A stretch of 64,000 nt of DNA from an uncultured Candidatus Rokubacteria bacterium. GTDB taxonomy: Bacteria > Methylomirabilota > Methylomirabilia > Rokubacteriales > CSP1-6. The stretch lies in contig CAWBMV010000006.1 in NCBI GenBank assembly GCA_963789955.1, positions 288,001-352,000 of the forward strand, given 5' to 3'. The notes below the pieces were generated by a model that was given only the letters and a program-made list of their open reading frames with translations, was not told the origin of the DNA and ran no database searches. Both the position numbers and the translations under genes were made by a program. Positions 37,772 to 61,586 of this stretch are shown here, piece by piece (the stretch's first letter is position 1; each line of letters begins with the position of its first letter).

Positions 37772-39332
37772 TCAGCGTGCGCCGATGAACGCCTTCGCGC
37801 GCGCGATCTCCGGACGCGCGGTGTCGGCCTTGCTGGCGAGGGCGACGAGCTTCTCGTAGTAGCCCACGGCCTTCGGCCGATCGCCGGCCATCTCGGCCGC
37901 GCGCGCGGCACCGTAGAGCCCGCGGTAGCGGTTCGGGTTCTCCTTGATGGCCGCCTCGAACTCGCGCAGCGCCGCCGGCGCCTGCCCCTGCTGGAGCAAG
38001 AGCTCACCGAGCAGCTCGCGCATCGGATAGAGCCGGTTCTCCATCGCCACGTGCTTGACGCTGGCATCCTCGCTGTCGGCGGCGCCTCGCATGAACTTCA
38101 GCGCCTCGTCGCGCGAGCCCTCCGCGAGGGCCACCCAGCCGGAGACGGCGAGCATCTGCTCCTCGGTGCGATCGGCCCAGTAGCTCTGGTTCGATTTCTC
38201 CAGCGCGGCGCGAAGCTCCTGCATCGCCTGGATCTCGCGCTTGGCGCCGGCCAGATCGCCCGTGCGGGCCATGCCGAGCCCTCGGGTGAACCGCACGAGC
38301 GAGTCGGCCTGCGGCCATCCCGTCGACACGACGGGAAGCGCGGCGGCCCCCGCCCAATCGCCCCGCTCGAGCACGTAGCGCGCCGGCACCGCCGCCAGCG
38401 CCGTGAATCCGGGAACGGCCCCGCCGCTCAGCCGCGGCATGGCGGCGATCGGGTCGACCAGCGCCTTGGCCTTGGCGTCCTGGGCGAGCTGGAGATGCGC
38501 GTACACCATGAAGTCGGTCGCGTGGTAGTAGTCGGGCTGGATCTCGATCGCCGACCGGTTCGAGGCGATCGACTCCTCCCACATCCCCACCATCGAGTAG
38601 ATGTGCGAGGGCATGTGGCGGGCGTGCGGCGCCGCCGGCGCGATCCGGCCGTACGCGACGGCGATCTTGATGCCCTTGTCGGCGAGCGGCGGATAGTCGT
38701 AGGCGTGAACCAGATAGTGCGCGACCCCCGGGTGCTCGGGGTTCTGCTTGAACAACCGCTCGAGGATCTCGGCCGACTTGAGCTGGTTCGCGTACGTCTT
38801 GTCGCTCTTCGACGCCGAGGCCTGCAGGGTCAGTGCGTAGTAGGTCCACGCTTCGAAGTCGTCGGGGTAGCGCTGCGTCATCTGCTCCATCGCCTTGGTA
38901 TAGGCGGCCAGCCGCGCGCTCACCGGCGTCTTGTCGGCGTCGCGATAGTAGACGCCGATCGCCTCGATCCAGTCCCGCTCGCGCTGGGTCTTGGCGCCGA
39001 TCGTCCGCGCCTTCTCGAGGGCCTCGGCCGCCGCGGCCGCGTCCTTCGCCGACGGCGCCGCCGCGAGCGAATTGCCGAGGTAGTTCACGGCCAGCCCCCA
39101 GTACGCGATCGCGCAGGTCGGGTCCTGCTGCAGGACACTCTCGAAGACCTTGCGCGCCTCCGTGAACCAGTAGGAATGCAGCATCGCCACGCCGCGCTCG
39201 AACTGGCGCCTGCACCTTCGCGTCGCACGAGGTCGGGAAGGTGACCTTGCCCAGCTTCTCCTGCTGGGCCGCGGCCGGGACGACCAGCGCGACGACACAT
39301 GAGATTGCGAGCAGCCCTGCCTTGGTTCTCAT
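37772..39332 (-). CDS. Secreted TPR-repeat protein, frameshift near 39205
   Basis: Signal peptide; LGKVTFPTSC, HPGVAHYLVHAYD and PHARHMPSHIY motifs; helical repeats. Confidence 0.8.
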
Positions 39333-39357
39333 CGAGACCTCCTCGAGCTGATCCAGA

Positions 39358-39909
39358 TCACGGCGTGTCCATGGTACCGCGCTCGTTGGCCACCGCATAC
39401 GCCCGCCGGGCGCGCTCCACATCGAACGGGCGCTCCTCGAGCGTGTCGGGCGCCCACTCGCTGCGGGGCGTACCGAAGAAGTCACCGCCGTAGACGTGGA
39501 TCGCTCCCGTGAATCTTCCAAGCGGATTGACGACGGAATGGATGACTGCCTCGTCGAGCCGCGCGGTCTCCGAGCACTCGAGGCGCTGGCCGCCGGCCGC
39601 CGCGAGGCCGCGCGCGCCACGGCGGTAGAAGGTGTTGTCCTCGCGACCCCCGTACAGGCCGATCACGGCCCACATTCGGTGCTCGTGGGGATAGATGGCC
39701 ATGCCCGGTGCCCAGACCACATTGAGGATGGTCAGCTCCGGGGAGTGATGAAGGGTGATGAGACCGCCGAGGCGCGGAGTGCCGAGCGCGGCTTCGACGG
39801 CGGCCGGCGCGGCCACCGCGCGCTCGGTGAGCTCGCCGATCGCCGCGGCCGGACAGCTGGTCGTGAGGGCCGTCCGACAGTCGGCGATGAAGCGGTCGAG
39901 ATCGAACAT
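39358..39909 (-). CDS. Cysteine-dioxygenase-like cupin metalloenzyme
   Basis: YPHEHRMWAVIG...IHSV...IHVYGG. Confidence 0.8.
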   Translation of the reverse strand: MFDLDRFIADCRTALTTSCPAAAIGELTERAVAAPAAVEAALGTPRLGGLITLHHSPELTILNVVWAPGMAIYPHEHRMWAVIGLYGGREDNTFYRRGARGLAAAGGQRLECSETARLDEAVIHSVVNPLGRFTGAIHVYGGDFFGTPRSEWAPDTLEERPFDVERARRAYAVANERGTMDTP

Positions 39910-43322: not shown

Positions 43323-43416
43323 CGCGCCGATCGTGCGCCTTTCGGCCCTCACGCGCAACACGCCGGGCCGGAGTATGATTCGGGCACCGCCGACCGAACG
43401 GAGAAAGGAAGACCCC

Positions 43417-44056
43417 ATGGCAGGCAACACGGACCTGTTCGAGATCATGCAGACCATGCGCGCGATGCGCCGCTTGAAGCCGGACCCGGTTCCCGACGAG
43501 CTGATCAGGAAGATCCTACAGGCCGGCACCTGCGCGCCCGAACGGCGGCAACACGCAGCGCTGGCGCTTCCTGGTGATCAAGGATCGGAAGATCAAGCAG
43601 GGCGTCCAGGTCTGGTACAAGAACGCCTTCGACGAGGTCGTGGGCCCTCGCTATCTCAAGAGCTCGCCGCCCCCGGGCGTCACGCGCGAGCAGTACAACC
43701 GGCAGCACGCGGCGGTGGAGTATCTGACCGATCACTTCCACGAAGCGCCCGTGTGGATCGTCGCATGCCTCGAAGAGGCCGCGGCGCCGACCCGCGGGTC
43801 CGGCGCGTCGATCTATCCGGCCGTGCAGAACATGCTGCTGGCGGCGCGGGCGCTCGGGCTCGGCGCCACCCTGACGACTCGGCACCTTCTGTACGAGAAG
43901 GAAGCGGAAGCCGCCCTCGGACTGCCGCCGGGCGTGCACTCCTACGCGATCATTCCCATCGGCTATCCGATGGGGAAGTTCGGCCCGGTCGGCCGCGGGC
44001 CGCTCAAGGAGATCGTGTACCAGGACCGCTGGGGTACGCCGTATCAGGGCGTCTAG
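43417..44056 (+). CDS. Nitroreductase family protein, frameshift near 43540
   Basis: RAMRRLKPDPV, GNTQRWRF and QNMLLAARALGLG motifs. Confidence 0.9.
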
Positions 44057-44065
44057 GTAGCCGCC

Positions 44066-44086
44066 GGGGGCCCGTCACGGGCCCCC
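44066..44086. terminator. Terminator-like hairpin GGGGGCCCG-TCA-CGGGCCCCC
   Basis: 9-bp perfect stem 9 nt after the nitroreductase stop; no clear U-tract. Confidence 0.5.
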
Positions 44087-44104
44087 TCCAAATCGTAAAG
44101 TCTC

Positions 44105-44212
44105 TTGACACAACCTCTGTTTCGACAGATTGTGAGCCAGCATTGCGCCCGCTGAGTGATCGAGCGGGCGACCCGTTTGGAGAAGCTCACCAATTGGTGG
44201 CTCCAAGACGGG
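44105..44212 (+). promoter_or_regulatory. TTGACA promoter followed by two stable hairpins in the long leader of the giant protein
   Basis: TTGACA at 44105-44110; stems at 44146-44170 and 44172-44212. Confidence 0.4.
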
Positions 44213-44558
44213 GCTAGTGAACCGGGGCGTCTCTGTCCTCATTTCCTCGTGCCCCGACAGCGAGCTCGTGATTGAGCTATGGAGTTATCGATATAGAGGC
44301 TCGGTGCGGTAGTCCGCCGGGCCCCGGAACATCGGGGCATCCGTGGATCAGCCGGCCCGAATCGTTCGGCCTGATAGCCCTGCCATCTCACATCGGCGCC
44401 CCGGAATGCCTCGGCGGCGCCGGCCATCTCCCTAAACCGTCGACGAAGCCGGCCGTGTGTCTCTCCATCACGGTGCGGCGAACGGGGGGGACCTGGTCGA
44501 CCTGACGTAGCAGCGATTCCAGCGTGTCCTCTTCCCCTTCGACTCGCCCGGGAGGGTC

Positions 44559-47500
44559 ATGAAGAGCGATAAGCGGTTTGGGATTTTTGCGGTTGCCGTT
44601 GCTGTTGTCCTCGCGCTGTTCGGCTCGCCTCGGACCGCCAGCGGAGCTGTCACTTTCGTTCAGGCCGTGGGCGCGACCGATGACGCCGCTGCCGCTTCAG
44701 TAGCGCGCGCTTTCACCAGCACCAATACGGCCGGCAACCTCATCGTCGTTGCTGTCAGCTGGGGCGACCGGACGGCGCCCGCTGTCAGCGCGACCGACAC
44801 CCTCGGCAATATCTACTTCCTCGCCACCAACGACTTCGACCCGGGCAAGCGCCAGGGCCTCGCGATCCTCTTCGCCCCGAACATCCGAGCCGGAGCGAAC
44901 ACGGTCACCGTCAACTTCGGGGCGGCGAACGGCTATCGGCGAATCATCGTCAGCGAGTACAGCGGAGCCGCGACCGCGTCCCCGCTGGATGCCACGGCCA
45001 AGAATCGCGCGAACGGCACGAAGACCGCCAACGCCGTCACCAGCGCCTCGGCCACGACGACCGCGAACGGCGACCTGATCTTCGGCGCGGTCATGGACGA
45101 TTCGGGGTTTTTCGGCACGATCACGGCTGGGACCGGGTTCACGCGACGGGCGATCGTCAACAACGTAGACATGGCGACCGAGGACCTGGTCCAGGCCGCC
45201 GCCGGTCCGGTTGCCGCAACGTTCACGTTCAGCCGGGCCGACACCTATCTGGCCCAGATGGCCGCCTTCAAGGCGGCGCCGGCGGGGGGTGGAGGCCCCG
45301 CCGCCTCTTCGCTCGTCTGCGCTCCCTCGAGCCTGACGGCGGGCGCCTCGACGACTTGTACCGTCACGTTGAGCGCTCCGGCGCCGGCGGGGGGAAGTAC
45401 CGTCGCGTTGTCGTCCAACAACGCCGCCGCGCTGCCGGTGCCCGCATCTGTGACCGTACCGGCCGGGGCGACGTCTGCTGCCTTCACGGCAACGGCTGCG
45501 ACGGTCACGGCGGCTCAGACAGTCACCGTCTTCGCCACCCTTGGCGGCAGCGCCACCGCGACGGTCACCGTCACGCCTCCACTCCGGGTGTCCTCGCTCG
45601 TCTGCAATCCGACGAGCATCACCTCGGGAGCGTCGACGACGTGCACCGTCAATCTGAATCAGGCCGCCCCCACCGGGGGGAGCGTCGTCGCGCTCAGCTC
45701 GAACAACCCGTCAGTCCTGGGCGTGCCGACGTCTGTGACGGTGCCTGCCAGCGCGACGTCGGCCGCGTTCACGGCGGCCGGCGGCTCGGTCGCGACGACG
45801 CAAACGGCCGTCGTGACAGCGACGCTCGGCGCCAGTGCCACGGCAACCGTGACCGTCAAACCAGTCCTGAGCGTCTCGTCGCTGGTCTGTAGTCCGACGA
45901 GCGTCACATCAGGCGCCTCGACCACCTGCACGGTCAGCCTCAATCAGAACGCACCCGCGGGCGGCAGCGTTGTGGCCCTCGGCTCGAACAGCGCAGCGCT
46001 ACCCGTCCCGGCCTCCGTCACCGTTCCGGCCAACGCTCAGTCGGCGACATTCACGGCGACAGCCGCGTCGGTGGGCGCGGCTCAGACCGCCACGGTGACC
46101 GCGACGCTCGGCGCCAGCACCACCGCGACCGTGACGGTCACACCGATCCTCAGCGTGTCGTCGCTCGTCTGCAGTCCGACGAGCATCACGTCGGGCGCGG
46201 CGACCGCGTGCACCGTCAATCTCAATCAGAACGCCCCAGCAGGCGGGGGAGTAGTGGGGCTCGCTTCGAACAACGCGGCATTACCCGTTCCGGTTTCGAT
46301 CACCGTGCCGGCCGGCTCGGCGGCGACTACGTTCACGGCGACCGCCGCGTCGGTCGCGTCCCCTCAGACGGTGACCGTGACCGCCACGCTCGGCGCCACT
46401 GCCACGGCGACCGTGACCGTCGCCCCCATCAACCCCAACGTGTCCTCGCTGGTCTGTAGCCCGACGAGCGTGACGTCCGGTGCCTCGACGACGTGCACCG
46501 TCACCCTGGATCTGGCGGCGCCGGCGGGTGGGAGAACCGTTGCGCTCGGCTCGAACAATACGACGGTACTGCCCATCCCGGCCTCCGTGACGGTCGCTGC
46601 TGCCACGAATTCGGCGACGTTCAGCGCCACGGCCGCATTGGTAGCGACGGCGCAGATTGTGACCGTCACCGCGACGCTCGGCGCCAGCAGCACGGCAACC
46701 GTGACCGTCACACCTCCAAGCCCGAGCGTCTCGTCGCTCGCGTGCGCTCCCGCGAGCCTGCCGTCGGGCGCGACGACCACATGCACGGTCACGCTGAATC
46801 TGGCGGCGCCCGCGGGTGGAAGCACCGTCGCGCTCGGGTCCAACAACCCCGCCGCGCTGGCGGTCCCGGCGTCCGTCGTCGTACCCGCGAGCACCACGTC
46901 GACGACATTCGCGGCCAGCGCCGGAACGGTAGCCGGGGCTCAGACGGTCACCCTGAGCGCAACGCTCGGCGGCAGCACGACCGCGACCGTGACCGTCACG
47001 CCCGTTCTCGGCGTGTCCTCTCTGGTCTGCTATCCGGCGACCGTCACGTCGGGCGCTTCCACGACGTGCACCGTCACGTTGAACCAGGCAGCCCCCGCCG
47101 GCGATGGCACCGTCACGCTCGCCTCGAGCAACACCACGGTGCTGTCGGTGCCGGCCTCGGCGACCGTCGCGGCCGGGGCGACGTCGGCCACCTTCACGGT
47201 GACGGCCGGCTCGGTCGCGGCGCCTCAGCCCGTCACCGTGACGGCGACGCTCGGCGGAAACGTCGCCGCGACCGTCACCGTCACGCCCATCACCATCGTG
47301 TCGACGCTCGCGTGCACCCCGTCGAGCGTGACCGCGGGCACGTCGACGGCGTGCACTGTCACGTTGAATCAGGCCGCGCCGACCGGCGGAACCGCCGTCA
47401 CGTTAGCCTCGAGCAATGCCACTGCGCTGCCGGCGCCGGCGTCGGTGACCGTGCCGGCCGGCGCGGCGTCGACCACGTTCACGGCGACGTCCGGCTCGGT

Positions 47501-50500
47501 GGCGACGCTGCAACCCGTGACCTTGACCGCCACGCTCGGCGCCAGCAGCGCGACCGCCACCGTGACGGTCGCGCCGAGCCCGAGAGTGTCCTCGCTCGCA
47601 TGTGCGCCGGCCAGCCTGACGTCGGGCGCTGCGACGACGTGCACGATCACCTTGGATCAGGCGGCGCCCGCCGGCGGCAGCACCGTCACGCTCGCGTCGA
47701 ACAACACCACCGCGTTGCCGGTCCCGGCTTCGCTGACCGTACCGGCCACCACGACCACGGCGACGTTCACGGCCACCGCGGGCTCCGTCGCGGCCTCTGA
47801 GACCATCACCGTGACCGCAACGCTCGGCGGCAGCACCATCGCGACCGTGACCATCACGCCAGCCCTCGGCGTGTCCTCGCTCGTCTGCAGCCCGACGAGC
47901 GTGACATCGGGCGCCTCCACGACTTGCACCGCGACCTTGAATCAGGCGGCGCCGACCGGCGGAAGCGCGGTCATGCTCGCGTCGAGCATCCCGGCCGCGC
48001 TGCCGGTGCCCGCCTCGGTGAGCGTACCGCCCGGCGCGACGTCCGCGACGTTCACGGCACCCGCCGGCACGGTGGCGACGGCTCAGACCGTGACGGTGAC
48101 CGCAACGCTTGGCGGGACCACCACCACCACCGTCATCGTCACGCCCATCACGAGCGTGTCGTCGCTGGCGTGTGCGCCGCCGAGCCTCGCCCCCGGCGCC
48201 GCCACCACATGTACCGTCACGTTGAACCAGCCGGCGCCCGCCGGCGGGAGCGTCGTCGCGCTCGCCTCCAGCAACGCCGCCGCGTTACCCGTCCCGCCGT
48301 CGGCCACTGTGCCGGCGAGCGCGACGGCGACCACGTTCACCACGACAGGCGGCGCAGTCGCGACGTCGCAGACCGTGACGGTGACCGCGACCTTGGGCAG
48401 TAGCGCGACCGCGACCATCACCGTCGCGCCGAACCCGTCCGTATCCGCGCTCGCGTGCGTGCCGACCACCGTCGCGTCAGGCGCGGCGACGACATGCACC
48501 GTCACCTTGGATCAAGCGGCCCCGGTCGGCGGAAGCGCTGTCATGCTCGCGTCGAACAACACAGCCGCGTTGTCTGTGCCCGCCTCGGTCGCGGTCGCAG
48601 CTGCGGCAACGTCCGCCACATTCACGGCGACGGGCGGCTCGGTCGCGACGCCGCAAACCGTGACCCTGACGGCGACGTTCGGTGGGAACAGCACCGCGGT
48701 GGTCACCGTCACTCCCAATCCCGCCGTGACATCCCTCGCATGCGCGCCAACGAGCGTGACCTCAGGCACGTCGACGACGTGCACCGTCACGCTGGATCAG
48801 CCGGCCCTCGCCGGCGGGAGCACCGTCGGGATCTCGTCGAACAACACCACCGCGTTACCGGTCCCGGCTTCGGTCACGGTGCCGGCCAGCACGACGTCGA
48901 CCACGTTCACGGCCACTGCCGGCACGGTGGCCGCGTCTCAGACGGTCACGCTCACCGCAACACTCGGCGGCAATACCACCGCGACGGTGACCGTCACGCC
49001 GAGCCTCGCGGTGTCGTCGCTGGCGTGCGCTCCGGCGAGCCTCAACCCCGGCGTCGCGACCACATGCACCGTCACGTTGAATCAGGCGGCGCCCGCCGGC
49101 GGAAGCCCGGTGACGCTCGCCTCGAGCAACACCACGGCGCTGCCCGTTCCGGCGACCGTCACCGTGCCGGCCGCCACGACCTCGACCACGTTCACGGCGA
49201 CCGCGGGCTCGGTCGCGACATCCCAGACGGTCACCGTGACTGCGACGCTCGGAGGCAACACCACCGCGACCGTCACCGTGACGCCAGGCCCGAGCGTCTC
49301 GTCTCTCGCATGCGCGCCCTCGAGCGTGACGTCAGGGGCGAGCACGACGTGCACGGTCACGCTGGATCAGGCCGCGCCGGCCGGTGGAAGCGCCGTCACC
49401 CTGGCGTCGAGCAACACCACGGCGCTACCCGTACCCGCGTCCGTGACGGTTCCCGCCGCGACGAATTCGACGACGTTCACGGCGGTGGCCGGCTCGGTGG
49501 CCACCTCTCAGACCGTCACCGTGACCGCAACGCTCGGCGCCAGCGCTCCGACCTCGACGGTGACGGTCACCCCGAGCCTCAGCGTGTCCTCGCTCGCCTG
49601 CGCTCCGCCGAGCGTCGCTGGCGGCACCCCCACGACGTGCACCGTTGCCCTGGCTCAGCCCGCGCCGAGCGGCGGGAACACGGTCACGATCGCCTCGAAC
49701 AACACGACCGCGCTACCGGTACCGGCGTCCGTCACCGTGCCGGCCGGTGCGACGTCCACGACCTTCACGGCCACGGCCGGCTCGGTGGCGACGTCTCAGA
49801 CTGTCATCCTGACCGCTACCCTCGGCGGCAGCACCACGACCGCGACCGTGACCGTCACGCCCGGCGGGGCGAGCGTGTCGACGCTCGTGTGCGCTCCCGC
49901 GAGCGTTGCGTCGGGCGTCTCGAGCACGTGCACGATCACATTGACCCAGGCGGCGCCGAGCGGTGGAAGTGTCGTCACGCTCGCTTCGAGCGACACGTCC
50001 GCGCTGACCATCCCGGCTTCGGTGACCGTACCCCCCGCGATGAGCACCACCATGTTCACGGCGACCGCGGGGACGGTCGCGGCGACCCAGGCGGTGACGG
50101 TGACCGCGACGCTGGGTGGCAGCACGACCGCGACCGTGACCATCAACCCGGTCGCGCTGGTCTCGCTGGCGGTGACCCCCGCCAATCCGTCGATCGCGGC
50201 GGGCACCACGGTGCAATTCACCGCCACCGGCACGTACAACAATGGCGGCTCCCAGAATCTGACGACGTCGGTCACGTGGAGCTCGTCGGCGACCGGCGTG
50301 GCGACGATCAGCGGCACCGCCGGCAGTCAGGGACTCGCGACCAGCGCGTCGCCGGGAACCACAACGATCAGCGCGGTGTCCGGCTCGGTCTCCGGATCGA
50401 CGCCCCTGACCGTGACCCCGGCCATCGTTCCGATCACCTTCGTGCAGGCGGGCACCGCGACGAGCGACACCGCGGCCACGTCGATCGCTCGGGCCTTCAC

Positions 50501-53320
50501 GGCCAACAACACGGCGGGCAATCTCATCATCGTCGCGGTGAGCTGGGGAGATCGCACGGCCGCGTCCATCAACGCGACCGATACCCTCGGCAATACCTAT
50601 TTCGTCGCCACCAACGATTTCGACACGAACAATCGCCAGGGCCTCGCGATCCTCTTCGCTCCGAACATCCGGGCCGGCGCGAACACCGTCACGGTCAACT
50701 TCGGCGCGTCGAACGCCTACCGTCGGATCGTGGTCAGCGAATACAGCGGGATCGCCACCTCGTCTCCGCTCGACGGGGTCGCCAAGAATCGCGCCATCGG
50801 AACCACCGCCGCCAACGCGATCACCAGCACGGCGGCCACGACCACCGTGAACGGTGATCTGATCTTCGGCGTCGCCATGGACGACTCGGGCTTCTTCGGG
50901 ACGATCACCGCCGGGACGAACTTCACCCGGCGGGCGGTCGTCAACAACATCGACATGGCCACCGAGGACCGGGTTCAGGCGACGGCCGGCTCGGTCGCGG
51001 CCACCTTCACGTTCAGCCGGGCTGACGCCTACCTGGCGCAGATGGCCGCCTTCAAGCCGATGTCAGCGGGTGGGGGAGGCGGCGGCGCGCCCAGTGTGTC
51101 ATCGCTCGCGTGCGCGCCCGCGAGCCTCGTCTCGGGCGGCACGACGACTTGCACGGTCACCCTGACGCAGGCAGCCCCGACCGGTGGCAGTGTCGTGACC
51201 CTCGCGTCGAACAATCCGAGCGCGCTGCCCGTGCCCGCCTCGGTGACGGTCCCTGCCGGCTCCGGGTCGGCGACCTTCACCGCGACGGCCCCGACCGTGA
51301 CCTCGCCGCAGACGGTAACCGTGACCGCCACACTCGGCGGTACCGCCGCCGCGACCTTGACGGTGGGCTCCAGCAGTACGAGCGTGTCGTCACTCGCGTG
51401 CGCACCTGCGAGCCTGGCGTCAGGCACCTCGACGACGTGCACGATCACGCTGACCCAGGCGGCGCCTGCCGGCGGCAGCACCGTTACCTTGTCCTCGAAC
51501 AGCGTTGCGGCGCTGCCCGTGCCCGCGTCGGCCACCGTCCCTGCGACCGCGACGTCGATCACTTTCACGGCGACGGCCGGCGCAGTGCCCACCCCGCAAA
51601 CAGTCACGGTGACGGCAACACTCGGCGGCAGCGCCAGCACGACTGTGACCGTGACCCCCGGGAGCCCGAGCGTCTCGTCCCTCGTGTGCTCGCCGTCGAC
51701 CCTGACGTCCGGCGCGTCGACCCTTTGCACGGTGAACCTCACGCAGTCGGCCCCGGCCGGTGGGAGCACGGTCTCGCTGTCGTCGAACAACACACCCGCA
51801 CTGCCGGTGCCCGCGTCCGTGACGGTGCCGGCCAGCTCGACGTCGGCCACCTTCACGGCGACGGCCGGAACGGTGACGACGCCACAAGCGGCGAAGGTGA
51901 CGGCGACGCTCGGCCCGACCTCCACCAGCACGACCTTGACCGTGGCCTCGAGCCAGGCGCAGCTCAAAGGGGCGTGGTCCGGGCCGTTCACGTGGCCGAT
52001 CGTCGCCGTGCACATGGCGATGCTGCCCACGGGCAAGGTCATGGCGTGGGACCTGGACAACAACGCAGTGCAGCTCTGGAATCCGGCCACGGACGTCTTC
52101 ACCGACGTCACGAACACCGCCGAGAGCTTCTCGTTCTTCTGCACGGGTCAGACGGCGCTGGCCGACGGGAGAATCCTGATCGACGGCGGCCACGTCAACT
52201 GGGACGTCGGGAGCCGTCACGCCAACGCGTTCAATCCCGTGACGCAAACGTGGACCCCGCTGGCGCAGATGGCGGTCGAGCGCTGGTATCCCACCGTCAT
52301 CACGTTGGCCGACGGGCGTGTCCTGGCCGTGGCGGGACACACGACCTGCAAGACATGCGTGGCGCAAACGCCGGAAGTGTACGACCCGGTCGCGAACACC
52401 TGGACGCAGCTCCCCGGCGCCAAGACAGGGATTCCGACGCAGTATCCGCACATGTACGTCCTGCCCGACGGGCGTGTCCTGCAGGTCGCCTCGTCGGAAG
52501 AAGTGATTCCCACGAGGGTCCTGGACCTGACGACACAAACGTGGACGACGGTCGATCCCAATCCTCTCGACGGCGGAAGCTCGGTGATGTACTTGCCCGG
52601 GAAGGTGATGAAGTCCGGCGCGGCGTGGGACGACGGCAACGGCAATCCAACCAACGGCACGTATGTGCTCGACATGACTCAGCCCGCGCCGACCTGGCGA
52701 CAGACCATCGGCATGACGTTCCCGCGACTCACGCACAACCTGACGCTCTTGCCGGACGGCACCGTGCTGGTCACCGGCGGCTCCACCAACTCGTACATCT
52801 CCGATCCGGCTTCCGTGGTCTATGACGCCGAGCTCTGGTCACCGGTGACCGAGACCTGGACGACGATGGCGTCGAGCTACAGGTACCGCGGATGTATCAC
52901 TCGACGGCCCTGCTGCTGCCCGACGGCCGTGTGCTGAAGGCCGGCGGCGGGCGATTTGGCGGCACGGGACCCGGCGCCGACCAGTTCAGCGCGGAGATCT
53001 ATTCGCCGCCGTACCTGTTCAAGGGTGTGCGGCCAACCATCACGTCGGCTCCGGCCGCGATCGGGTACGGGTCGACGTTCACGATCGCCACCCCGGACGC
53101 GGCACAGATCGCCGCGGTGTCCCTCGTCCGCCTCGGAAGCGTGACCCACACGTTCAACAGCGGTCAGCGCTTCCTGCCCTTGGCCTTCCAGCCGATCGCC
53201 GGAGGCTTGAGCGTGACGGCGCCGCTCAGCGGGAACCTCGCGCCGCCCGGCTACTACATGCTCTTCATCGTGAACACCAATGGCGTGCCGTCGGTCGCGC
53301 CGTTCGTGCAGATTCAATAA
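44559..53320 (+). CDS. Giant (~2,900 aa) secreted repeat protein with C-terminal galactose-oxidase-like (AA5) Kelch and DUF1929 domains; one frameshift near 52878
   Basis: Sec signal; two ~205-aa TFVQA domains; 20 ~95-aa repeats; Big_2-like domain; FFC, RWYP, RMYHS, VTHTFN and APPGYYMLF motifs. Confidence 0.9.
45300..50145 (+). repeat. 17 tandem ~285-bp coding repeats (SSLxCxPxSxxxGxxTTCTVTL...PASVTVPAG...TVTATLG); three more at ~51090-51950
   Basis: Counted from the translation; each unit has one C-x12-C pair. Confidence 0.9.
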
Positions 53321-53409: not shown

Positions 53410-53928
53410 ATGGCCATCAAGCTGATCCATCACGTCAACGTCCAGGTGAGCGACCGCGAGCGCACGCGCGCCTGGTACGAGAAGGTCCTCGGCGCCGAGT
53501 TCCTCGACCGCGGTCCGGCGCTCAACAGGCGGCAGCTCCAGCTCAGGCTCGGCTGCGGCGAGATCCATTTCACCGTGACGCCGCGGCCGGTCATCCCGGC
53601 GTCGAGCCACTTCGCGATCGAGGTCGACGACTGGGACGCCACGATGGCGCACCTCGACACGCTCGGCATCCAGCACGTGCGGACGTCGGCCGCGAGCACC
53701 GGCACCGACATCGGCGGCACGGACCCGCGGCAGGGGCGGCGGGAGGACAGCAGCGAGCACTACGCGTACATCGAGGACCCCGACGGGAACTTGATCGAGC
53801 TCGTCAACCATCCGCTCGGGCTACAGGATTCTCAGGGCCGCAAGGTCGAGGTCACGCACGATCCCAAGGGGCTCCGCTGGGTCCAGATTCCCGGCTTCGT
53901 CGAGGCAGAGACCGCGCGCGAGCGCTGA
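53410..53928 (+). CDS. VOC/glyoxalase family protein
   Basis: IHHVNV, HFAIEV and YIEDPDGNLIEL motifs. Confidence 0.88.
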   Translation: MAIKLIHHVNVQVSDRERTRAWYEKVLGAEFLDRGPALNRRQLQLRLGCGEIHFTVTPRPVIPASSHFAIEVDDWDATMAHLDTLGIQHVRTSAASTGTDIGGTDPRQGRREDSSEHYAYIEDPDGNLIELVNHPLGLQDSQGRKVEVTHDPKGLRWVQIPGFVEAETARER

Positions 53929-55626: not shown

Positions 55627-56924
55627 TGATGCCTCAGCCGTAGGTGTTACCGGGGACCGACGGCAATGCCTCACAATGGAGTTACCGAAGATTCGGCGAC
55701 CCGGCGGCGCGAGTCGCCACATTTCCAGAGCCGATCGAGAGTATCGCCGATGTGGGTGGCGAGCGTCGCAGGGTCCACGGCCAGAAACTGAGCCTCGAGG
55801 GCACGACGGCCGTCCGCCGCGAGGGCGCCGGCGGCGAGCAAGCGCTGATACGGCGTCTGGGCGCGGTCATAGGCGCGCACGCGTTTACTGCCGACGCGGC
55901 GGGTGTGCAGCACTTTGCGAAAGGGCCGGAAGAAGTTCAGTTGCACGCGCAGCAAGTCGTACAGGCGTCGGAGCAGGCCGAAGGCGATGTGCGAGCTGTA
56001 GCGATCCCGACCCACGAGCCGACGCACCGCCAGCCAGTTGCGCAGTTCCACCCACGCCTGATCGTTCTTGCGATATTGCCGGCCGCGGGTGACACGGATG
56101 TTATGCCGACGGCAATAGCGCAGTAGTCCCCGGTTGAGGAATTCGCTGCCGTTGTCGGTGTGCCATTCGCGCAGGGGGACGGGCAGGCGCTGGTGCACAT
56201 GCTGCACGCCGGCGCCCACGCGGACGGCGCCCACGCCCCAGATCGGCTCGAGCTCGATCCAGCCGCTGGCGACGTCGACCGCCACCAGGCTCGCGAGGTG
56301 AAAGCCCTCGGTCGACTCCCCACAATGCAGGACCAGATCGGCCTGGACCGCGCCGGGCTGGCTGCCGGCCCATTCGCTCCACGTCCGCACCGGGATCTGC
56401 TGCTTCAACGCGCTCGCCGCCAGGGAGACGCGATACGGCTGCCGGCCCAGACGCGTGCGGCACGGCCGGAGGAAGCGATCGAGGGTGGCCGGACTGAGCG
56501 CGAGCAGCTGGCGGCGGTGGTCGGGGGCGATCCGCAGTCCGTGGCGTTCGAGCGCGGGGACGAGGGTCGGCAGCGCCGCCGCGAGCAGCTTGCCACACAG
56601 CCGATCGCTGATGTGCCAGAGGCGCTCGAGCGTGGGCACGAGGCTGCGATCGTACTGCACCCGGCGACCGGCGCGCCGCCGTGGCCGCGGCGTCCGAGCC
56701 AAGGCGCGGATCGCCGCCTTGCGATGACAGCGCAGCGTGCGGCAATACTCATCCAGGATCCGGCTCTTCATTTCGCGCTCCGCGGCCACGTATCGCCGCC
56801 GAACGGCTTCCGTGTACTCCGCACGCGCTGGCTTGGTCACCGGGCCTCCCTTCGGGTGTCCTGCTCGGTAACACCCTTTGTGAGGCATCGACCTCTTCGC
56901 CGGTAACAGTTCTAATGAGGCACA
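55627..56924 (-). mobile_element. Insertion sequence (rve/DDE transposase, ISNCY/IS481-like) with paired terminal motifs
   Basis: Ends TGATGCCTCA (left) and TGTGCCTCA (right, reverse complement); two GGTAAC-N7-9-TGAGGCA motifs at each end, inverted relative to each other. Confidence 0.75.
55671..56840 (-). CDS. DDE integrase-core (rve) transposase
   Basis: KSRILDEYC..HRKAAIR N-terminus; QADLVLHCG (D), HTDNGSEF (D), KNDQAWVE (E); QTPYQRLL; GGGAGG RBS with GTG start. Confidence 0.9.
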   Translation of the reverse strand: MTKPARAEYTEAVRRRYVAAEREMKSRILDEYCRTLRCHRKAAIRALARTPRPRRRAGRRVQYDRSLVPTLERLWHISDRLCGKLLAAALPTLVPALERHGLRIAPDHRRQLLALSPATLDRFLRPCRTRLGRQPYRVSLAASALKQQIPVRTWSEWAGSQPGAVQADLVLHCGESTEGFHLASLVAVDVASGWIELEPIWGVGAVRVGAGVQHVHQRLPVPLREWHTDNGSEFLNRGLLRYCRRHNIRVTRGRQYRKNDQAWVELRNWLAVRRLVGRDRYSSHIAFGLLRRLYDLLRVQLNFFRPFRKVLHTRRVGSKRVRAYDRAQTPYQRLLAAGALAADGRRALEAQFLAVDPATLATHIGDTLDRLWKCGDSRRRVAESSVTPL

Positions 56925-57056
56925 TCGCGACCTTGCGGCGCGCCGTTCGGGCGGAGTACGCTGGCGGGGCTCGCGGCCCCGGCCGCGCGTCGCCCCGAAA
57001 AACGTCAAGACGCCGGTGCCCTCCGAGGCGGACGGCGAGACAGGCGGAGTACGACG

Positions 57057-59089: not shown

Positions 59090-60047
59090 ATGGCGCGATT
59101 GACTCGCGAAGACGTGCTGAAGAAAGCCGAAGCGCTCAAGAACTGGGGCAAGTGGGGACCCGACGACGAGATCGGCGTCCTCAACTACATCACGCCCGAG
59201 GACATCGTCAACGCGGCCCGGCTGGTGAAGAAGGGCAAGGTCTTTCGTCTCGGCCTCGAGCTCGACGAGAACGGGCCTCAGCGCGGCATCTTCGGCGGAC
59301 GCTGGAACCCGATGCATCAGATGCTCGCGACGGGCACCGACGCCGTCGCCGGCAAGCACGACGTGACGCCGGGCCTTCGCTACGCGGACGACGCGATCAA
59401 CCTGCCGACCCAGGCCGCCACGCAGTGGGACGCGCTGTCGCACGTGTTCCTCGTCGACAAGATGTGGAATGGCTATCCGGCGACCTGGTCGACAGTCGCG
59501 GCGCCCATCGGAACGGCATCGAGAAGTTCGCGAACAAGATGGTCGGCCGGGGTGTGCTGCTCGACGTGGCGCGCTGGAAAGGGCGTGGCCTGCCTCGCGG
59601 ACGGCTATGGGATCACGGTCGCCGACCTCGACGCGACCGCGCATGCTCAGGGCGTCACCGTGCGCCGCGCCGACTTCGTGATCATCCGCACGGGACAGAT
59701 GGAAGATCGGCTCGCGCGCGGCGAGTGGGGCGGCTACGCCGGCGGCGACGCTCCCGGGCTGGCGTTCGAGACGCTCGACTGGATCCACGGCAAGCAGATC
59801 GCCGGCATCTGCAGCGACACCTGGGGAATCGAGGTCCGGCCCAACGACACCGGCCCCGACGTCTTCCAGCCCTGGCACTGGGTCACGATCCCCGCGATCG
59901 GGATCGTGCACGGCGAGATCTTCTATCTGAAGGAGCTCGCCGAGGACTGTGCCGCCGACCGCGTCTACGAGTTCTTCTTCTGCGCGCCGCCGCTCGTCAT
60001 CTCCCAAGGGCACCGGATCGCCGATCAACCCTCAGGCGATCAAGTAG
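59090..60047 (+). CDS. Cyclase (kynurenine formamidase-like) family protein, several frameshifts
   Basis: NWGKWGPDDEIG, TQWDALSH, GRGVLLD, IRTG and SPINPQAIK motifs. Confidence 0.88.
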
Positions 60048-60060
60048 CGCGGCGCGGCCT

Positions 60061-60810
60061 TCAGCCGCGCCCGAGATGACCGACGATCGTCTTCTGGTAG
60101 TCGAGGAACGCGACGCTCAGCGGATCGCGAGGGCGGGGGAGCGTGATGCGCGTCTGGGCGCGGACCGTGCCCGGGTGCGGCGAGAGGACGATCACGCGAT
60201 CGGCCAGGTAGACGGCCTCCGCCACGTTGTGGGTGACGTAGAGAACCGTCTTGCGCGTTTCCTCCCAGACGCCGACGAGAAAGCGCTGCATCTCGTCCCG
60301 GGTCAGCGCGTCGAGCGCCGCGAACGGCTCGTCCATCAGCAGGACCGACGGGTTGTAGGCGAGCGCGCGGGCGATGGCCACGCGCTGCTGCATCCCGCCG
60401 GAGAGCTCGTGCGGGTAGGCGGCGGCGAAGCGCTCGAGGTCGACCAGCTTGAGGAAGCGCCGCGCCGTCTCGGCGCGCTCCGCCGCGGCGACGCCGCGCA
60501 TCTGAAGCCCGAACTCCACGTTGCGCTGCGCCGTCCGCCACGGAAAGAGCTGGGCGAAGTCCTGGAAGACCACGCCGCGGTCGCCACCGCGACCGGTCAC
60601 GACCTCGCCGCCGATGCGGATCTCGCCCGCGGTCGGCCGGAGAAATCCCGCGACGATGTTGAGCAGGGTGGTCTTCCCGCAGCCGCTCCGGCCGACGATG
60701 CAGAGAAACTCCGAGGCGGCGACGTCGAAGCTGACCTCGCTCAGCGCCGTGACGGGGCCGTCGGTGCCGGCGTAGGCATACCCGACCTTGGAGAGCTCGA
60801 TGTGCGGCAT
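60061..60810 (-). CDS. NitT/TauT ABC transporter ATP-binding protein
   Basis: GRSGCGKT, LSGGMQQR and LLMDEPF motifs. Confidence 0.93.
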   Translation of the reverse strand: MPHIELSKVGYAYAGTDGPVTALSEVSFDVAASEFLCIVGRSGCGKTTLLNIVAGFLRPTAGEIRIGGEVVTGRGGDRGVVFQDFAQLFPWRTAQRNVEFGLQMRGVAAAERAETARRFLKLVDLERFAAAYPHELSGGMQQRVAIARALAYNPSVLLMDEPFAALDALTRDEMQRFLVGVWEETRKTVLYVTHNVAEAVYLADRVIVLSPHPGTVRAQTRITLPRPRDPLSVAFLDYQKTIVGHLGRG

Positions 60811-60817
60811 CCGCGGC

Positions 60818-61586
60818 TCAGGTCCGCACGGTCTTCACCATGCCCCAGCGGCCCACGGTCCGGTGCTCGAGCATCTGGAAGACCAGCCGCTCGATGCCGA
60901 GACCGAGCACGCCGATGACGAGCAGGCTGCCGAGCATGACGTCCGTGTCGAGGTATTCCTTGGAGTCGAAGATCACCCAGCCGAGGCCCCAGCTGGTCGC
61001 GGCGATCATCTCGCCGCCGACGACCGCGATCCACGCTCGCGCGAACGCCTGGCGCAGCCCGGCGATCACGAACGCCAGCGATCCCGGGAGCACGACGCTG
61101 GCGGAACACGGCGCGCTCACCGGCTCCCATCGTTTCGGCCGCGCGGATCCAGATCCGGTTCACCGACTTCACGCCGGTCCACGTGTTGAGGATCACCGGG
61201 AACGTGGCGGCGTAGAGCACGAGCGCGATGCTCGCTGCGTTGCCGAGGCCGAACCAGAGAATGAAGAGCGGCACCCACGCGAGCGACGGGATCGGGCTCA
61301 GCACGGTCACCAGCGGCAGCACGAACGATTCGACCCGGCGGAAGCGCCCCATGAGCATGCCGATCGGCACGCCGATGACCAGCGCCAGCGCGAGACCCAC
61401 GACGATCCGGAACATCGTGTACGCGATGTGCACGAAGAGGGTCCCGTTCAGCGCCATGCGCCCGATCGCGGCGCCGATCGCCAGCACGGACGGCGTGATG
61501 GCCGGAGGGAGCATGCCGCTGCGCGCGAACACCTCCCACGCCGCGGCCGCGAGGCCGAACGAGAGCACGATGCCGAGCGGGCTCAT
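60818..61586 (-). CDS. NitT/TauT ABC permease, frameshift near 61100
   Basis: PIPSLAWVPLFILWFG and RAAETMGA motifs. Confidence 0.9.

Follow-up and report, generated by a model that had tools for sequence, protein, structure and literature searches.

In a 64,000-nucleotide stretch of DNA from an uncultured Candidatus Rokubacteria bacterium (assembly GCA_963789955.1, contig CAWBMV010000006.1, positions 288,001 to 352,000; hereafter the window), we found a gene for a giant modular protein whose C-terminal head is probably an active copper-radical oxidase of AA5 type. The gene lies on the + strand as two overlapping open reading frames (ORFs), 44559-52937 (2792 aa) and a second-frame tail at 52892-53320 (142 aa). 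By arithmetic from these coordinates, the read-through product is 2919 aa long. It is predicted to comprise a signal peptide, an unnamed all-β domain, 17 tandem repeats, an immunoglobulin (Ig)-like Big_2 domain, a second copy of the unnamed domain, three further repeats, and a head formed by a Kelch propeller and a GO-like E-set domain (Table 1). As a working model, to which we give a probability of about one half, the secreted chain would bind a surface through its two unnamed domains, and the head would carry out local oxidation with release of H2O2.

The oxidase head

A Kelch propeller followed by a GO E-set domain in one chain was recognised by Pfam, on sequence only, in both pieces of the gene and in the intact relative P0335; these matches, together with that to Glyoxal_oxid_N, bear out the propeller and DUF1929-like end proposed in a preliminary description of the gene. 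The motifs FFC, RWYP, RMYHS and VTHT, on which that description had based a copper-radical site, are all present and supply the five cofactor and copper residues of the family. In the intact same-genus ortholog L002, which is 68-70% identical, the corresponding FC, RWYP, YH and TH motifs align with those of GlxA (4UNM, E value 5e-53) and of 9G8H (2e-51); L002 also matches 9N3U, with an E value of 1e-28. For P0335, the order of PDB matches was 9G8H (1.6e-53), 6RYW (8e-51) and 4UNM (1e-48), with AA5_2 chains ranging from 1.6e-53 to 4.9e-47. We take 9G8H to come from Pseudarthrobacter and 6RYW to be CgrAAO. The GlxA model NF052501 matched P0335 with an E value of 6e-74 and 249 bits, and P0013 with 244 bits, both far below its equivalog cut-off of 800 bits. 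From what is known of the family, such a head would be expected to bind copper, form a Cys-Tyr radical and catalyse two-electron oxidations.

The second sphere points away from the galactose-oxidase head of the preliminary description. A tryptophan directly precedes the cofactor tyrosine, as in GlxA and the fungal aldehyde oxidases, and across 123 aligned heads this position is Trp in 91, Tyr in 31 and Lys in one. GlxA W288 and FgrAldOx W509 are placed in the same way, an arrangement that has been tied to aldehyde oxidases, whereas galactose oxidase W290 sits on a separate loop (PMC13094651). GlxA is reported to accept glycolaldehyde and hardly any galactose (PMC11611005). The RWYP of the window protein aligns with RWYP in 4UNM, and chains 5LXZ and 5LQI read RAYP there. 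In the window protein the W290-equivalent position, 18 residues after the cofactor tyrosine by the 9G8H and 6RYW alignments and by what we take to be the galactose oxidase numbering, is a threonine. Elsewhere it is Thr, Ile, Asp, Ser, Gln, Val or another residue, and in none of the 123 heads is it aromatic. Both cysteines of a CxxC pair in the same loop are kept in 119 of the 123 heads and in all 114 of a second, mostly shorter set, and the pair is missing at that position in the aligned PDB chains. Because of the Trp-Tyr arrangement, the lack of an aromatic residue at the W290 position and the substrate preference of GlxA, we expect chemistry like that of GlxA and the aldehyde oxidases rather than that of galactose oxidase. 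The full set of five site residues is present in 116 of the 123 heads and in 111 of the 114; the two sets overlap in the window protein, L002, P0011 and P0013.

Integrity of the gene

The preliminary description placed a frameshift at 52878. The break exists, but its position is that of two extra bases, 52871 and 52874. We compared eight sequencing runs, X1, X2, X3 and X5 (probably DNA), X15 and X19 (RNA), X4 and X6, the matching runs coming from soil, rhizosphere and sediment. Both bases are absent from the contigs of all six runs that span the site (X1, X2, X3, X5, X15 and X19); the X4 and X6 contigs do not reach across it. P0335, which is 96.7% identical over 912 aa, follows the gene up to 52871 and resumes at 52874 in a single frame, and P0336 is a second intact near relative. 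The GC-frame track changes frame at the same site. Other genes in the window also appear split, namely those for a TPR protein (37772-39620), a nitroreductase (43333-44217), a cyclase (59090-60079) and an ABC-permease (60741-61586); the nitroreductase has its Pfam halves in two frames, and the other three splits were judged by eye. A GspD-like secretin gene elsewhere in the genome (contig C37, 291522-293490) is split too, which suggests indel errors throughout the assembly. Given the six runs without the extra bases, the read-through in P0335, the switch of GC frame and the other split genes, the frameshift is very likely an assembly error and the gene intact, which speaks against a real, unrepaired lesion.

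The RNA-run contigs do not establish transcription, since one X19 contig extends into the upstream intergenic region. Cover in X19 is thin over 46756-49200, for which a shorter stalk and fragmentation are both possible, and it was not counted as evidence.

The repeat array

The array holds exactly 20 repeats of 94-97 aa, in the 17 + 3 arrangement first described. All 40 repeat cysteines fall in C-x12-C pairs, one pair per repeat, and the region of repeats 1-17 is as rich in Thr (22.5%), Ala (19.8%), Ser (12.9%) and Val (12.6%) as had been claimed. Pairwise identity among the repeats is 56-83% (mean 67%), and the longest exact DNA common to two of them is 28 bases, so duplication in the assembly does not account for the array. 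Contigs in X3, X4, X5 and X19 cover each of the gene's 30 bins, and one X4 contig of 1298 bases runs collinearly through about 4.5 repeats; no contig among the compared runs spans the whole gene. Divergence, the 28-base maximum, full bin cover and the collinear contig together rule out expansion during assembly, and the array is genuine.

An AlphaFold2 model of a repeat pair, built from 22 alignment rows, shows two all-β domains with a predicted local distance difference test score (pLDDT) of 96. Compared with intimin D00-D0, invasin and FdeC, it gives Z scores of 11.0-11.2 at a root-mean-square deviation of about 8 Å, and single-domain Ig matches superpose at 2.2-2.6 Å. By sequence, Big_1 matches the repeats with an E value of only 0.042. 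The stalk is thus predicted to be a tandem Ig (Big) rod, with a fold nearest to invasin and intimin domains, in keeping with the adhesin-like rod of the preliminary description. Disulfides within the repeats are plausible for a secreted protein.

The repeat occurs in 20 of 183 genomes of the order, and in Bryobacteraceae proteins without an oxidase it forms arrays of up to 16 with the cysteines kept; from its sequence distribution, we regard it as a mobile spacer. The Bryobacteraceae loci L021-L026, L033 and L043 are divergent gene pairs whose products each begin, as judged by eye, with a cohesin-like part, carry 3-16 C-x12-C repeats and in many cases end in a TIGR03437-like stretch. We know of no characterisation of these repeat proteins. 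Matches of the repeat pair in the ESM Atlas were mostly unnamed Armatimonadota and Acidobacteriota clusters of low recognition.

The unnamed domain

The preliminary description had noted a duplicated domain of about 205 aa. The duplication stands, with two copies 79% identical, and the length is about 212 aa. The domain matches 7125 cluster representatives (50% identity) at E ≤ 0.001, and has no Pfam family and no PDB sequence match even at an E value of 10. Its AlphaFold2 model is all-β with a pLDDT of 96.9. Weak alignments to jelly-rolls cover residues 1-108 and, in few rows, the second half; similarity between the two halves is not significant (hhalign probability 0.35%). Foldseek matches reached template modelling scores of at most 0.33, and such weak matches do not show a new fold. 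Among the best 150 of the 7125 carriers, 10 hold an AA5-type head piece and 17 the repeat of the window protein. By its sequence matches, we consider the domain a promiscuous module of large modular proteins; that it binds glycans is a guess.

The protein family

Among 5355 candidates, a search with the head matched 1403 proteins of 1535-4886 aa at E ≤ 0.001; many lower matches may be plain Kelch arrays. Among the best 120 of the 1403 long matches, propeller and E-set occur together in 110, of which 11 have both twice. Accessory domains in these 120 include LamG, Big_7, fn3, DUF11 and others, and a repeat of the kind described here is found in two. Within the order (Rokubacteria-like), 43 of 183 genomes contain PF09118, for the most part in open frames 600-1900 aa long. 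As a separate observation, P0001-P0010 and P0012 (1589-2961 aa) carry two complete AA5-type heads per chain, with DUF11 in eight of the first ten and the unnamed domain in most.

Orthologs with a leader vary in repeat number, from one (P0342/L002) to three in a row (P0337), three interspersed with Big_2 and the unnamed domain (P0013), and 20 in the window protein. The order unnamed domain, 1-4 repeats, head is found in 14 proteins among the matches listed and in L002/L058, and on domain matches we take it to be the conserved unit. Scans of genomes and metagenomes for the sequence pattern yielded chiefly loci with repeats alone, and a full-length long ortholog was not among them. The protein thus appears to be a long, extreme member of a widespread, apparently unstudied family. 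No description of the architecture, or of AA5 in Rokubacteria, was found in the open-licence literature by titles and abstract openings, which agrees with the earlier remark that no characterised protein of this architecture was known; long modular AA5-like proteins are common, however, and fungal WSC-AA5_1 enzymes offer a precedent. A paper of 2013 recorded GO-like proteins from different bacterial phyla (PMC3543389), and bacterial AA5 members are described as falling outside the two subfamilies (PMC11267884).

Among known enzymes, GlxA of Streptomyces lividans shares the Cys, Tyr, Tyr-His and His site, the RWYP tryptophan, the E-set end and, by prediction here, secretion. The window protein lacks the large insert (β-sheet domain 2) that GlxA has between its Cys and Tyr blades, with a gap of about 120 residues between the matched 4UNM stretches; it has no cslA-like neighbour and adds the CxxC pair, the Ig rod and the unnamed domains. 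The fungal WSC AA5_1 aldehyde oxidases (FgrAldOx 9N3U, CgrAldOx and TrLOx) likewise place tandem N-terminal modules before an AA5 head and have consecutive Trp-Tyr residues (PMC13094651, PMC11611005). Their WSC modules differ in having a PAN/Apple fold and four disulfides, in 3-5 copies, compared with 20 predicted Ig repeats of one Cys pair each; three are reported in FgrAldOx (PMC13094651) and five in TrLOx (PMC11611005). The AA5_2 galactose and aryl-alcohol oxidases (1GOF, 9G8H/9G43 and 6RYW) have the same first-sphere residues, propeller and E-set, whereas the window protein lacks a W290-type stacking aromatic and gave no CBM32 match in the Pfam scan. Invasin, intimin and FdeC share the predicted repeat fold at 13-20% identity, but no inverse-autotransporter barrel or lectin-like tip was found in our sequence or its Pfam scan. 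The Bryobacteraceae cohesin-like/repeat/TIGR03437 (Soli_cterm) proteins have the same repeat but no oxidase head, and L021 ends in a TIGR03437 domain.

Proposed function and alternatives

The leader, whose presence agrees with the preliminary description, has no lipobox cysteine on reading the sequence by eye, and leaders of like kind occur in the orthologs P0013, P0342 and P0337. In the working model, the 2919-aa protein would be exported by Sec and then probably by type II secretion. The two unnamed domains would attach it to a polysaccharide surface, and the Ig rod with these domains would position the head there, where it may oxidise small hydroxy-aldehydes, alcohols or glycan hydroxyls to yield H2O2. 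The 17-repeat block would set a variable distance between two binding sites rather than act as a stalk anchored in the membrane. We prefer this reading because no cell anchor is visible in the protein sequence, the 17 repeats lie between the unnamed domains, and the head is three repeats from copy 2. The Pfam scan showed no outer-membrane β-barrel family, and other domains account for the whole chain. An Ig domain is 3.5-4 nm long, from which the block would form a spacer of about 60-70 nm. That the stalk holds the enzyme far from the cell, as first suggested, is not borne out by a sequence without an anchor or by intact orthologs with one or three repeats; the rod would reach that far only with domain 1 attached to the surface of the producing cell. 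The WSC domains that attach fungal copper-radical oxidases to cell-wall glycans are a precedent for surface binding (PMC11611005).

Several observations weigh against this model. The WSC domains of FgrAldOx and CgrAldOx are reported to have bound none of six polysaccharides (PMC13094651). Structural matches of the unnamed domain to a TNF-like lectin, CBM27, CBM22, other jelly-rolls and viral receptor-binding domains are weak (best Z score 5.4). Of 34 carriers scanned at E ≤ 1e-15, three hold an apiosidase-like domain and one a phosphoesterase, too few to establish glycan binding. The repeat lacks C-x12-C in eight of nine other loci examined, and neither DsbB nor VKOR was found in the source genome (87% complete); among 61 genomes searched, DsbB occurs in one and VKOR in 21. 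The best PDB match of P0335 is a galactose oxidase (9G8H). The 142-aa JGI protein P0334 shares its starting Met with the tail; a contig edge might explain this, or else another broken copy of the gene. Lastly, P0011, P0344 and P0356, with heads 70-76% identical, have lost the copper site while their frames stay open and the CxxC is kept, so the protein can persist without catalysis.

This last point supports the idea that the protein is mainly an adhesin, in which the propeller would do the binding at the end of an invasin-like rod, with catalysis secondary or dispensable. In the site-less clade, substitutions affect the Cys, the two Tyr and at least one His, the five positions reading G-S-Q-N-H in P0011 and S-S-L-N-R in P0344 and P0356; P0011 still has the unnamed domain, Big_2 and six repeats, and one repeat persists in P0344. 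In a quick tree of 54 rows from the top matches, with the Shimodaira-Hasegawa-like approximate likelihood ratio test (SH-aLRT) as the only support measure, no bootstrap and no characterised AA5 rows, the clade has a support of 99 and is sister to the window protein, P0335 and P0336 with a support of 84. Site loss required at least three separate changes on this tree, and P0012, P0044, P0051, P0080, P0083 and P0108 are other site-less heads. The repeat fold is also nearest to adhesins, and the oxidase-free Bryobacteraceae proteins are built from the same repeat. Against this, the window protein and most relatives retain every site residue, and an Ig fold in common says nothing on function; we consider a mainly adhesive role unlikely. 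Within the repeat array of the site-less lineage, we also observed an accessory domain that starts QFGL.WPGNGE.RRMLYW and is LamG-like by eye (L029:3-2033 and P0011 residues ~25-285).

A cell-tethered enzyme like a galactose-6-oxidase, which would introduce aldehydes into matrix glycans at a distance from the cell, to cross-link them or to attach covalently, is to our minds likewise unlikely. In its favour, galactose oxidases 9G8H/9G43 are the top PDB matches of P0335, and reports describe GlxA as required for depositing glycan and FbfB for forming fruiting bodies (PMC11611005, PMC3543389). The absence of an aromatic W290 equivalent throughout the heads, the lack of an anchor and the orthologs with one or three repeats all argue against it, as does the absence of any glycosyltransferase or polysaccharide gene from 18 scanned frames, unlike in the cslA-glxA locus. 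Supply of extracellular H2O2 to peroxidases or Fenton reactions acting on soil organic matter, or to harm neighbours, with the substrate incidental, is another possible role, and a classical one of fungal glyoxal oxidases (PMC13094651). It seems rather improbable here, for it leaves the stalk and the site-less sister clade unexplained, and no peroxidase lies among the scanned neighbours, although no genome-wide peroxidase search was made. That the frameshift is real in the strain, leaving a pseudogene or a rod with a truncated, inactive propeller, is very improbable: P0334 starts at the same internal Met and the case for integrity draws on other runs rather than source-sample reads, but the two bases are absent from six runs, both P0335 and P0336 are unbroken, and the assembly splits other genes.

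Beyond the working model of a secreted, surface-binding oxidase, a wider reading seems fairly unlikely. Soil Rokubacteria and Acidobacteria may use an undescribed bacterial copper-radical oxidase subfamily, marked by the GlxA-type Trp and a near-invariant CxxC next to the site, as redox-active adhesins, in which a new family of double jelly-roll domains (over 7000 clusters) would grip glycans at both ends of an Ig rod that grows and shrinks between 1 and 20 units and the head would write aldehydes or deliver H2O2 at the point of contact, some lineages having turned the head into a pseudo-enzyme that only binds.

Gene map and genome context

Table 1. Features of the oxidase gene and of related or nearby loci (window coordinates unless a contig is named).
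Feature	Position	Strand	Basis or remark
Sec signal peptide, predicted	44559..44645	+	Basic start, hydrophobic core, ASG/A cleavage site; read by eye
Unnamed ~212-aa all-β domain, copy 1	44646..45281	+	Predicted two jelly-roll-like sandwiches; possible glycan-binding module
17 tandem ~95-aa C-x12-C repeats	45300..50150	+	Predicted invasin/intimin-type Ig fold
Big_2 Ig-like domain, as first described	50151..50429	+	PF02368, E 1.2e-12, over cut-off
Unnamed domain, copy 2	50433..51065	+	79% identity to copy 1
Repeats 18-20	51093..51953	+	Sequence
Kelch β-propeller, AA5-type copper-radical oxidase	51954..53029	+	Kelch and Glyoxal_oxid_N matches; frameshift inside
Cys2528 (FFC), cofactor cysteine	52140..52142	+	Aligned to LFC of 4UNM, MFC of 6RYW/9G8H
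Trp2576-Tyr2577 (RWYP), GlxA-type second-sphere Trp and cofactor Tyr	52284..52289	+	Aligned to RWYP of 4UNM
CxxC (Cys2597, Cys2600), in loop where GalOx has W290	52347..52358	+	Family signature
Two extra, frame-shifting bases (52871, 52874)	52871..52874	+	Very likely assembly error
Axial Tyr and His copper ligand (RMYHS), in shifted frame	52895..52900	+	Aligned to RNYH of 4UNM via ortholog L002
GO-like E-set (DUF1929) C-terminal domain, then stop	53030..53320	+	PF09118, E 2.6e-28
Second His ligand (VTHT)	53147-53149	+	Within GO-like E-set domain
Integrase-core (rve) transposase-like ORF	55671-57008	-	2.3 kb downstream of oxidase gene
Second, shorter AA5-like gene, same genome	contig C8 41651-44182	+	FC, RWY, GYH, MTH motifs; no repeat stalk

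The neighbours encode a nitroreductase, an amidohydrolase, a LysR regulator, a VOC protein, an NMT1 binding protein, a MOSC protein and the integrase-core ORF. Their 90% clusters are labelled Methylomirabilota or Rokubacteria, apart from one fragment labelled Verrucomicrobia. The regional scan covered 18 frames, including 17 neighbours, and revealed no glycosyltransferase, polysaccharide gene or peroxidase. A functional link to the downstream VOC/glyoxalase-family gene (53410-53928) was considered and is rejected for now: its product has no evident leader, and the L058 and L061 orthologs appear by eye to have other downstream ORFs. The same genome encodes a GspD-like secretin, two Sco matches and three DsbA-like matches over cut-off, all of which speak in favour of the working model.

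Significance

Few bacterial copper-radical oxidases are named as characterised in the papers we drew on (GlxA/SCO2837, FbfB and a CE3 fusion from Burkholderia), and the roles that these report for GlxA and FbfB lie in morphogenesis. The gene described here is one example from a large pool of long modular oxidases, apparently unstudied, in abundant uncultured soil bacteria. It offers an intact head of 450 aa that has a distinct active-site loop and is of biocatalytic interest, and a natural pair of catalytic and site-less proteins about 75% identical. The unnamed domain, with thousands of clusters, no Pfam model and a confident predicted structure, merits a description of its own. If active, the enzyme would be a localised source of H2O2 and aldehydes in soil biofilms.

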